This document shows, in pieces, positions 18,215 through 22,831 of a stretch of 42,979 bases of DNA. The DNA lies in assembly GCF_003334815.1 (NCBI RefSeq), contig NZ_QOWO01000032.1; one strand, 5' to 3'. Within the stretch, counting starts at the first letter, position 1, and each line of letters begins with the position of its first letter. The notes below the pieces were generated by a model, which saw only the letters and a program-made list of their open reading frames with translations, was not told the origin of the DNA and did not search any database. The translations under genes were made by a program, and so were the position numbers. The DNA comes from Escherichia coli (lineage in GTDB: Bacteria > Pseudomonadota > Gammaproteobacteria > Enterobacterales > Enterobacteriaceae).

Positions 18215-18485
18215 CCCGTAGGCCTGATAAGACACGTTAAACGTCACATCAGGCATCGCTTGTCGGATGCGGCGCTTGCGCCTTATCCGACCTACATTGG
18301 TGGTCCCCGTAGGCCTGATAAGACACGTTAACCGTCACATCAGGCATCGCTTGTCGGATGCGGCGCTAGCGCCTTATCCGACCTACATTGGTGGTCCCGT
18401 AGGCCTGATAAGACGCGTCAGCGTCGCATCAGGCTTCAATTGCCGGAGAAGGCGATAATGCCTTATCCGGTCTACAGTGCAGGTG
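18215..18485. repeat. Three tandem ~91-bp BIME/REP-containing units between sucB and sucC
   Basis: Units begin near 18215, 18306 and 18396; each contains gtaggcctgataagacgcgt…gcatcaggc and gccttatccg REP-like palindromes. Confidence 0.85.
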
Positions 18486-19729: not shown

Positions 19730-22531
19730 TTATTCGACGTTCAGCGCGTCATTAACCAGATCTTGTTGCTGTTTCTGGTGAACGGACATATACCCTACCG
19801 CCGGAGAGGCGGAGGCCGGGCGGCCTGCATAACGCAGAGAAGCCCCAAACGGAATCACTTCACGGAAATGATGCTGGCTGCAGTACCATGCGCCCTGGTT
19901 GAGCGGCTCTTCCTGGCACCAGACAAAATCCTTGACGTGAGCAAACTGCTGCAACACTTCCTGCATCGCTTTATGCGGGAACGGGTAGAGTTGCTCGATA
20001 CGCACAATGGCGACATCGTGTTGATTGTTCTTACGACGCTGTTCCAGCAGGTCGTAATAAACCTTACCAGAACACATCACTACGCGCTTCACGCCCTTCG
20101 GATCAAGCTCGTCGATTTCACCGATGGCTGGCAGGAAGGTGCCGTTCGCCAGTTCTTCGAGGCTGGAAACCGCCAGCGGATGACGCAGCAGGGATTTCGG
20201 CGACATCACGACCAGCGGACGACGCATCCCGCGCAGCGCCTGACGACGCAGCATGTGGTAAACCTGTGCCGGGGTAGACGGTACGCAAACCTGCATGTTT
20301 TGCTCAGCACAAAGTTGCAGATAACGTTCCAGACGCGCGGAGGAGTGCTCCGGCCCCTGCCCTTCGTAACCGTGCGGCAGCAACATCACCAGACCACACA
20401 TCCGGCCCCATTTCTGTTCGCCAGAGGAGATGAACTGGTCGATAACCACCTGCGCACCGTTGGCGAAGTCACCGAACTGCGCTTCCCAGATGGTCAGAGT
20501 GCGTGGTTCTGCGGTGGCATAACCATATTCAAACGCCAGCACTGCTTCTTCAGACAGTACGGAGTCCCAGACACGGAACGCGCCCTGCCCGTTATGGATA
20601 TGTTGCAGCGGCGTGTAAGTGGAACCGTTAGACTGGTTGTGGATCACCGCGTGGCGGTGGAAGAAGGTACCGCGACCGGAGTCTTCACCCGACAGGCGAA
20701 CCGGAATGCCTTCATCAACCAGCGTGGCGTAAGCGAGGTTTTCCGCACCGCCCCAGTCGAACAGTTTCTCACCGGCAGCCATCGCCTGGCGATCGCCATA
20801 AATCTTGGCAACGCGAGACTGCATTTCAACTGCTTCCGGCACCGTGCTGATGCGTTTCGCCAGCTCCTGCAGGCGCTTCATCTCAACTTTGTTCGGGTAC
20901 TCTTCGTCCCATTCGTGGTTGAGGTACGGCGACCAGGTGAAAGAGTGCATGTTCATCGGACGCCACTCTGCCACTACGCAATCGCCAGCATCCAGCGCAT
21001 CGCGGTACAGGTTAACCATCTCGGTGGCATCTTCCAGCGTCGCCACTTTTTCCTGCTCCAGCTTGTCAGCGTAGATTTTGCGCGGTGTCGGATGTTTTTT
21101 GATTTTCTGATACATCAGCGGCTGGGTTGCGCTCGGCTCGTCGGCTTCGTTGTGGCCGTGACGGCGGTAGCACACCAGGTCGATGAAGACATCACGTTTA
21201 AAGGTGTTACGGAAATCGAGCGCCAGACGGGTCACAAAGGCAACGGCTTCCGGATCGTCCGCGTTAACGTGGAAAATCGGGGCCTGAACCATCTTACCGA
21301 TATCAGTACAGTACGGCGTAGAACGGGCATCCAGCGGATTAGAGGTGGTGAAACCAACCTGGTTGTTGATAACGATACGTACCGTACCGCCAACTTCATA
21401 ACCACGCGCTTTCGACATGTTCAGGGTTTCCTGAACCACGCCCTGCCCGGTCACTGCGGCGTCACCGTGGATGGTGATTGGCAGCACTTTGTTGCTGCTC
21501 GGCTCATCAAGTCTGTCCAGACGGGCACGAACAGAACCGATAACTACCGGGCTTACAATCTCAAGGTGAGACGGGTTAAACGCCAGCGCCAGGTGCACCA
21601 GGCCGCCATCGGTCTGGAAGTCAGACGAGAAGCCCATGTGGTATTTCACGTCACCCGTGCCGAGGTGTTCTTTATGTTTACCGGCGAACTCGTCGAACAA
21701 GTCTTGCGGTTTTTTACCCAGCACGTTCACCAGCACGTTCAGACGACCACGGTGCGCCATCCCGAGAACCACTTCGCGGGTGCCGCTGTTGCCAGCGTGG
21801 CGGATCATCTCTTTAAGCATCGGGATTAACGCGTCACCGCCTTCCAGCGAGAAGCGTTTTGCGCCAGGGAATTTTGCGCCGAGGTAACGTTCAAGACCTT
21901 CAGCGGCGGTCAGTTCGCTTAAGAAGCGTTTTTTCTCTTCGCTATTGAAAGTCGCGCGACCAGACTCGATACGCTGTTGGATCCAGCGTTTTTCTTCGGT
22001 GCTGGTAATGTGCATATACTCGGCACCAATCGGGCCGCAGTAGGTTTGCTTGAGGGCTTCCAGCAGCTCGCCGAGTTTCATGGTTTCTTTGCCGCTGGCA
22101 AATGAACCGACGTTGAAGGTCTCCTGGAAGTCTGCTTCGGTCAGATCGTGGAAAGACGGATCCAGATCGGCCACTTTATCTTGCTGCCACAGTCCCAGCG
22201 GATCGAGATTCGCATGCTGGTGACCACGGAAGCGGTATGCGTTAATGAGCTGCAGGACTTTAACCTGCTTCACATTGGTGTCAGGGTCGGAGATCGTTGA
22301 AGAGTAACGTGAAGCGTCTTTCGCCAGGCGGCGGAAATATTCACGCGTTTGAGAGTGGAATTGATCCGGTTTGACTCCCGTACCAGGTAACTGCTGGAAC
22401 GTCGAACGCCAGTTAGCGTCAACCGAGTCAGGATCGGTTAAGAAGTCTTCATAGAGCTGTTCTATCCAGCTCTGGTTTGCGCCAGAGAGGTAAGAAGAGT
22501 CCAACCAGGCTTTCAAAGCGCTGTTCTGCAT
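19730..22531 (-). CDS. sucA: 2-oxoglutarate dehydrogenase E1 component
   Basis: 933 aa starting [38 protein letters not shown]; ThDP-dependent E1. Confidence 0.97.
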
Positions 22532-22710
22532 CGTGATCCCTTAAGCATCTTTTTTATGCTTACTTCGCCGTGGATACTACCACGCACAGTGATGTGCGTG
22601 CCGGGGTTCACTTGCGAGCTCTTGTCTACGTAGTGGCTCGCGAAGGAACCTTTAAAAACTGTCTTAGTGTCAGGGGCAGTTTTTAAAGATTTCCTGCATT
22701 TCTTTGTTAC

Positions 22711-22830
22711 GCCTGATGCGCTGCGCTTATCAGGCCTACGGGTAATGACTTGTAGGCCGGATAAGGCGTTCACGCCGCATCCGGCACTGGTTGCCTGATG
22801 CGACGCTTGCGCGTCTTATCAGGCCTACGG
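22711..22830. repeat. REP/BIME cluster in the sdhB-sucA intergenic region
   Basis: Three REP-like palindromes (gcctgatgcg…cttatcaggcctacg; tgtaggccggataaggcg…; gcctgatgcgacgcttgcgcgtcttatcaggcctacgg) immediately after the sdhB stop. Confidence 0.8.
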
Positions 22831-22831
22831 T

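Follow-up and report, generated by a model that had tools for sequence, protein, structure and literature searches.

The spacer between sdhB and sucA of Escherichia coli K-12 is probably a junction in which a REP barrier, the separation of two halves of the message by RNase III, a conserved and regulated sucA leader and a weak promoter act together. The observation is real but ordinary, since it concerns a textbook operon and was already known; the roles of the junction have all been documented and the main finding is therefore not new. The junction sets the amount of 2-oxoglutarate dehydrogenase relative to succinate dehydrogenase from one transcript, and it is the point at which nitrogen status enters the TCA cycle, via GlnZ and Nac. 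Partial termination with readthrough, the secondary promoter, the dependence on RNase III, the RNA 3' ends and the pairing with GlnZ are known from published experiments; the identity, number and orientation of the REPs, the folds, the polymorphism in the population and the conservation and covariation across species come from the present analysis. Its added value is modest and lies in a three-allele REP polymorphism over 5426 genomes, in evidence that REPs replaced an ancestral GC hairpin, and in a covariation-supported structural map of the Enterobacterales sucA leader, which is absent from Rfam.

The window, i.e. the whole stretch of DNA that was analysed, is 42,979 nucleotides long. Its positions 22237-23637 are the exact reverse complement of 757600-759000 in the MG1655 genome (NC_000913.3), so that a window position equals 781237 minus the MG1655 position, and sdhB and sucA therefore lie on the minus strand. 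The 300-bp gap between the two genes given in an earlier note on this DNA was found as described (22532-22831, 300 nt), and it consists of a REP-cluster part (22706-22831) followed by a sucA leader part (22532-22705). The stretch 22532-22700 had been called AT-rich in the same note, which holds only mildly for the stretch as a whole (47.3% GC vs 51.3% in the window) and properly just for 22640-22700 (39% GC). In all 80 gammaproteobacterial loci retrieved, sdhB was followed by sucA, with gaps of 30-660 nt. The 321-nt junction RNA was predicted to fold with a minimum free energy of -123.8 kcal/mol (z = -7.2 vs shuffles). Elsewhere, the window contains ordinary K-12 features such as four clustered tRNA genes together with two RtT repeats (5-592) and the CpoB/ybgF RNA thermometer (1519-1657, 142 bits). 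The features of the junction are, in the order of transcription:

23548-22832, minus strand: sdhB, with the stop codon TAA at 22834-22832
22831-22829, minus strand: ACC spacer of 3 nt between the sdhB stop codon and the first REP
22793-22828, minus strand: REP 1, Z2-like, reading GUAGGCCUGAUAAGACGCGCAAGCGUCGCAUCAGGC in the transcript; predicted local hairpin of -20.5 kcal/mol; overlaps the RF02564 match
22786-22792, minus strand: head-to-head linker AACCAGU of 7 nt, from the Z2-like REP to the Y REP
22752-22785, minus strand: REP 2, of the Y type, GCCGGAUGCGGCGUGAACGCCUUAUCCGGCCUAC; in the orientation opposite to that of the other two
22513-22773, minus strand: open reading frame of 86 aa, its GTG start codon lying in the Y REP
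22740-22751, minus strand: tail-to-tail linker of 12 nt, from the Y REP to REP 3
22711-22739, minus strand: REP 3, Z1-like, tail-to-tail with the Y REP
22644-22695, minus strand: predicted hairpin A, an AU-rich stem of 18 bp with one bulged A and a loop region of 15 nt
22611-22645, minus strand: predicted hairpin B, CUUCGCGAGC...GCUCGCAAG
22581-22600, minus strand: predicted hairpin C, CACGCACA-UCAC-UGUGCGUG, a perfect 8-bp stem
22574-22582, minus strand: TGgTAGTAT, the only TANNNT -10-like hexamer on the transcript strand of the gap
22565-22574, minus strand: pairing site of the sRNA GlnZ, UCCACGGCGA, between hairpins C and D, at -43 to -34 of sucA
22542-22562, minus strand: predicted hairpin D, UAAGCAU-AAAAAAG-AUGCUUA, with an A-rich loop; abuts the Shine-Dalgarno sequence
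22537-22542, minus strand: Shine-Dalgarno sequence AAGGGA
22531-22529, minus strand: sucA start codon ATG

The three REP palindromes that had been noticed directly after sdhB are borne out by this analysis, the first one beginning 3 nt past the stop codon. An REP was taken as an imperfect palindrome of about 30-40 nt with the head GCCKGATGCG and the tail CTTATCMGGCCTAC (GTAG on the other strand), and both motifs are exact in all three copies, which identifies them as REP elements. The labels Y, Z1 and Z2 were assigned from what we take to be the published consensus sequences. The motifs occur far beyond chance, the 43-kb window holding 11 tails and six heads where shuffling gives an expectation of 0.00 and 0.32, respectively. 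The elements are extragenic, lying between sdhB and sucA, and they belong to a high-copy class, as a 500-nt query containing the REPs matched a median of at least 39 places per E. coli genome. The remaining motif copies in the window fall into two places, the sucB-sucC spacer and a region around 40.2 kb. The former (18218-18475) has six REP tail motifs, in three Z-Y units, and two naRNA4 (RF02564) matches at threshold (59.5 and 59.8 bits), and therefore another intercistronic gap of the operon also holds a BIME. The latter is an REP pair (40178-40283) that overlaps a match to the Rfam sRNA ES036 (CssrF) at 40207-40249, of 75 bits.

The K-12 cluster has the order Z2-Y-Z1, i.e. one Z2-Y unit with a 7-nt linker, after which a Z1 element stands instead of a second unit. 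It is thus an atypical BIME, the term for REP copies of alternating orientation. It is not a BIME-1, since Y and Z1 are joined tail-to-tail by a linker of 12 nt without the long IHF linker; the IHF consensus WATCAANNNNTTR had no match within one mismatch in 22500-22860. Local hairpin energies ranged from -13.9 to -21.3 kcal/mol over the three REPs, the latter value being that of REP 2. REPs 1 and 2 can alternatively form a duplex of about 33 bp, with a predicted energy of -48.9 kcal/mol against -44.3 kcal/mol for two local hairpins, and a pairing of REP 2 with REP 3 over 14 nt (93% complementary) is also possible.

The BIME portion resembles naRNA4 (nucleoid-associated ncRNA 4), an RNA derived from REP325, in its Y-Z2 REP pair at 22755-22825, which matched the full-length Rfam model RF02564 (positions 1-77) and at 88.4 bits exceeded the gathering threshold of 59.5. 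It differs from naRNA4 in that the best match lies opposite to the transcript strand of the operon (88.4 bits on the plus strand vs 53.3 bits on the transcript strand), and the likeness here is one of sequence alone. RF02564 amounts to modelling such a Y-Z2 pair of REPs, and the match reflects shared REP sequence.

REPs and BIMEs in intercistronic spacers are known from the classic case of malE-malF (Higgins and colleagues; nomenclature of Gilson, Bachellier and Hofnung). Elements of that type and the present cluster have in common imperfect palindromes of 29-36 nt with a GTAG-containing tail, an extragenic and high-copy occurrence with alternating orientation, a position between two genes of one operon, and RNA stem-loops linked to 3' ends of the upstream mRNA. 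The K-12 sdhB-sucA cluster differs in having Z2-Y head-to-head and then Z1 tail-to-tail, which is neither a canonical BIME-1 nor a pure BIME-2, and the spacer is additionally processed by RNase III.

The REP content of the junction is polymorphic. A survey of 5426 complete E. coli genomes showed that three junction alleles cover 5399 of them (99.5%); these are the three-REP allele of K-12 (2260 genomes), a canonical BIME-2 allele with at least two Z2-Y units of 95 nt (1378) and a REP-less allele with a GC hairpin (1761). The strains examined with the BIME-2 allele carried two to three perfect 95-nt units, and both four and six REPs were seen; the spacer of E. albertii has four units of 95 nt, that is, eight REPs. 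In the REP-less allele, 35 nt including the hairpin GCCGGGGAAAUCCCCCGGC, which begins 12 nt past the sdhB stop codon, stand in place of the whole cluster, and the gap is 200 nt long. A nearly identical GC hairpin was found in Citrobacter, and a GC-rich stem-loop soon after sdhB was present in every fully read Enterobacterales spacer of at least 200 nt. As REP-less genomes make up about one-third of E. coli, it was concluded that the REPs themselves are dispensable. The comparison suggests that the stem-loop is the ancestral feature and that the REP cluster may have replaced the GC hairpin in part of Escherichia; the GC hairpin at the same position in other Enterobacterales and in 1761 E. coli genomes fits the stem-loop as the selected feature. 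In Superficieibacter electus, the sdhB-sucA spacer is 660 nt long (locus L024, 2218-2877) and contains about six tandem units of the form GTAGGCCCGGTAAGCG...CACCGGGC. These are a different REP type; the site was colonised independently by another repeat family.

The earlier note had proposed partial termination or stabilisation of the sdh transcript together with an internal suc promoter, and this is supported, each element having published experimental backing. The operon was presented as a case in which an internal terminator lets part of the transcription through, and a 'secondary' promoter, meaning an intergenic one, was reported for sdh-suc in the same study (Conway 2014, PMC4161252). The published summary for the operon lists internal termination, an extra promoter and processing by RNase III/E. 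By Term-seq, a dominant RNA 3' end was mapped to MG1655 position 758531, which is window position 22706, 5 nt past REP 3; this end appears in the list for one condition and is absent from the other list (Adams 2021, PMC7815308). No intrinsic terminator was predicted on either strand of 22300-23000, nor in the REP-less allele. The RNA after REP 3 reads GUAACAAAGAAAUG and there is no U-tract behind any of the REPs, and therefore these structures are not classical terminators. The REP hairpins may instead cause the 3' end by blocking exonucleases.

A second dominant 3' end falls on the middle letter of the sucA ATG (MG1655 position 758707, window 22530) and was scored as neither Rho-dependent nor intrinsic (Adams 2021, PMC7815308). 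It suggests a stable leader fragment that holds the GlnZ site and that might act as a decoy. A region of Rho termination was reported in early sucA, at MG1655 position 758971 or window 22266 (Adams 2021, PMC7815308), and it could give rise to polarity upon translational repression of sucA.

RNase III processing and the GlnZ target site are the best-documented features of the spacer, and neither was mentioned in the earlier note. According to papers that cite Cunningham and Guest (1998), the sdhB-sucA spacer is processed by RNase III, and the site 5' of sucA was taken, along with one other, as a textbook case of RNase III cleavage (Gordon 2017). In that study, the RNase III position was placed at MG1655 758515 (Table 1 of Gordon 2017), which is window position 22722 in the loop of REP 3, with 305 reads in an rnc mutant vs 0-1 in the wild type. 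The signal of Gordon 2017 thus peaks on REP 3 and not on the conserved hairpin A. A double-stranded stretch of roughly 20 bp, or about two helical turns, was taken as the requirement for an RNase III site, and predicted folds provide this in the REP 1:REP 2 duplex of about 33 bp and in hairpin A, with its 18 bp and one bulge. From its modelled structure, hairpin A is a candidate RNase III entry site. It was further reported that SucA is reduced in an rnc mutant (Miyakoshi 2022) and that the repression of SucA by GlnZ needs RNase III (Miyakoshi 2022; Walling 2022).

Two known systems can be compared with this arrangement. The pdhR-aceE leader is, like that of sucA, the leader of the E1 gene of a sister 2-oxoacid dehydrogenase complex and lies inside an operon; it has a long stem-loop that RNase III cleaves, and GlnZ targets it too, at a site ahead of the ribosome-binding site (Miyakoshi 2022). 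The two differ in that AceE goes up and SucA goes down in the rnc mutant, and in that the RNase III sites are located upstream of the GlnZ site at sucA but downstream of it at aceE (Miyakoshi 2022). In rpsO-pnp, which together with sucA makes up the two reference sites of Gordon 2017, how strongly the downstream gene is expressed depends, as at sucA, on RNase III cleavage of a hairpin between the cistrons. There, however, the cut destabilises the downstream pnp message, whereas at sucA RNase III raises SucA.

A transcript sdhCDAB-sucABCD derived from Psdh would, on the preferred reading, run through the REP cluster, whose RNA may form very stable stem-loops or the duplex of about 33 bp in which adjacent copies of opposite orientation pair. 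The barrier at which 3' ends of the sdh mRNA accumulate would be made up of these structures or, in other strains, of the GC hairpin. They would also supply double-stranded RNA, a cut in which by RNase III would separate the sdh and suc halves. Uncoupling of the suc half by RNase III would then raise the output of SucA. The translation of sucA would be set by the A-rich hairpin D and the ribosome-binding site, and under nitrogen limitation GlnZ, with Hfq, represses it. Finally, some independent suc transcription would come from a weak secondary promoter within the gap.

This promoter, Psuc, was said by Cunningham and Guest in 1998 to be weak, repressed by IHF and partly dependent on sigma-38. 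A search for sigma-70 promoters with -35 and -10 elements at a spacing of 16-18 nt gave no sites in the gap of either the K-12 or the REP-less allele. The sequence TGgTAGTAT (22582-22574) has the TG of an extended -10 element without a -35 element, and on its sequence it is a candidate site of the weak suc promoter. A start from it would yield a leader without most of the GlnZ site, and it is therefore regarded as a candidate only. In the atlas of transcription start sites of Kim 2012, no start is recorded within the gap, and the sucA starts lie 661 and 669 nt upstream, inside sdhB, with low counts (U00096.2 positions 757260 and 757268; window 23192-23200).

Behind the REPs, a leader of 169 nt was predicted to form the four hairpins A-D, and the last ~150-230 nt before sucA have one shared architecture in Enterobacterales (sample including loci L006-L031, L036 and L065). 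This architecture was absent from the loci retrieved from Vibrio, Alteromonas, Shewanella and Aeromonas. The whole leader was aligned with MAFFT, by which hairpin A was well aligned and hairpins B and C, being of variable length, were not; covariation statistics were hence confined to hairpins A and D. In most Enterobacterales taxa, 12-17 contiguous pairs make up the stem of hairpin A; the loops are 4-147 nt long, and some contain ERIC-like insertions. In an alignment of 14 sequences, hairpin A was 95.6% paired and seven of the 18 pairs were changed on both sides; such double changes were reached by none of 500 shuffles, and sliding the partner column brought the pairing to 64% or less. In a second E. 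coli leader allele, hairpin B has the stem GCGGAC...GUCCGC with the same fold, and the loop of hairpin C is larger with its fold kept. Between genera, the stem sequence of hairpin C varies and the hairpin is kept. Nearly all of 25 taxa have hairpin D, in which the fifth pair covaries (A-U / U-A / C-G) across Enterobacterales. RNAalifold also proposed a pairing of CCACGGC with GCUUAAGG, for which all columns are invariant and thus neither support nor refute it. Different genera also have insertions of ERIC-like or other palindromes, which lie within the hairpin A loop or downstream of the GlnZ site, ahead of the ribosome-binding site.

The pairing of GlnZ with the leader was demonstrated by compensatory mutations (Miyakoshi 2022; Walling 2022). 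The leader sequence UCCACGGCGA can form 10 bp, including one G-U, with the GlnZ seed 5'-UUGCCGUGGAAA-3' (seed from Miyakoshi 2022), and the core CACGGCG was present at -35 to -41 of sucA in 21 of the 28 Enterobacterales loci sampled. It was also reported that a purine-rich stretch of 15 nt near the ribosome-binding site is needed both for the translation of sucA and for its repression by GlnZ (Miyakoshi 2022), and hairpin D probably overlaps this stretch. The sequence GCUUAAGGGAUCA before the sucA ATG is nearly invariant across Enterobacterales. Nac was also reported to bind the sucA promoter (Miyakoshi 2022; Walling 2022).

Structured sucA leaders that are riboswitch candidates include the sucA RNA motif of Burkholderiales and the sucA-II motif of Pseudomonadales, which share with the present leader a conserved structured RNA immediately upstream of sucA. 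A search of 22400-22950 against Rfam, at E-values up to 10, returned only naRNA4 and no family matching the leader; as the taxa differ and no similarity was detectable, the leader is not a member of either motif.

Within the leader, the invariant GGUUCC (22650-22645) can pair either with the upstream GGAAA at the base of hairpin A or with the downstream GAACC (22609-22605), by which hairpin B would be closed. This alternative is a reading of the folds, for which the invariance of the sequence gives no covariation evidence in either direction. The ~170-nt leader could be an undescribed cis-regulatory RNA family of Enterobacterales with a mutually exclusive pairing switch centred on GGUUCC, an idea we regard as quite unlikely to be correct. 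Were it true, the switch would decide on the entry of RNase III, on the access of GlnZ and the ribosome, or on both, and a corollary would be that the three upstream alleles in E. coli set different sdh:suc expression ratios.

The polymorphism of the REPs also bears on whether the cluster has any function. It may be selfish or neutral, its effects on RNA ends being incidental and all regulation residing in the conserved downstream leader. Such an explanation is somewhat unlikely, although several observations point to it: three alleles coexist in E. coli (2260, 1378 and 1761 genomes), the number of REPs ranges from zero to eight across E. coli strains and E. albertii, and in other genera the same spacer took up unrelated repeats (ERIC-like and other palindromes). 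REPs are, moreover, thought to be non-autonomous elements mobilised by TnpA-REP, as stated in PMC8266576. However, a stem-loop stands behind sdhB in all fully read Enterobacterales spacers of at least 200 nt, and the position is therefore not free of structure; the measured 3' end right behind REP 3 and the RNase III-dependent depletion on REP 3 likewise argue against this explanation.

A further explanation places the effect on the upstream gene, the stop-proximal REP mainly tuning the synthesis of SdhB by stalling the terminating ribosome and lowering the output of the upstream protein. REP 1 begins 3 nt past the sdhB stop codon, and REP hairpins no more than 15 nt away from a stop codon have been reported to stall the ribosome (Liang 2015, as summarised in PMC12306157). 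Yet the hairpin of the REP-less allele is also near the stop codon (12 nt), so that the spacing is not specific to REPs, and the RNase III and 3'-end data are left unexplained, for which reasons this explanation is considered unlikely. It is very unlikely that the cluster acts on the DNA or the nucleoid rather than via the mRNA, either as a BIME that binds gyrase or IHF or as the source of an HU-binding RNA like naRNA4. Elements of the Y/Z2 BIME-2 type are described as gyrase-binding sites, which counts for such a role, as does the RF02564 match, which exceeds the gathering score and is better on the plus strand. Against this, RF02564 is a REP-pair model that also matches the sucB-sucC spacer twice, no IHF consensus lies within one mismatch, no separate plus-strand transcript was reported here in the literature examined, and REP-less strains manage without the cluster. 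The combination of REP barrier, RNase III separation, regulated leader and weak promoter is preferred to these alternatives.

The 86-aa open reading frame in the gap almost certainly does not encode a small protein, in agreement with the earlier note, which had dismissed it as not credible. The frame is open and has a GTG start, but this start lies in an REP and the frame is not conserved in relatives. Four other E. coli alleles have shorter versions, of 71 aa in strain DG343-1 and of 24-32 aa in the remaining three; the frame is 24 aa long in E. albertii, and in Citrobacter and Klebsiella it is down to 11 aa. Conservation in this region tracks the RNA stems rather than codons. RefSeq has no annotation for the frame, the locus tags passing from b0724 (sdhB) to b0726 (sucA); the skipped tag b0725 would fit an early call of an open reading frame in the gap that was later withdrawn.
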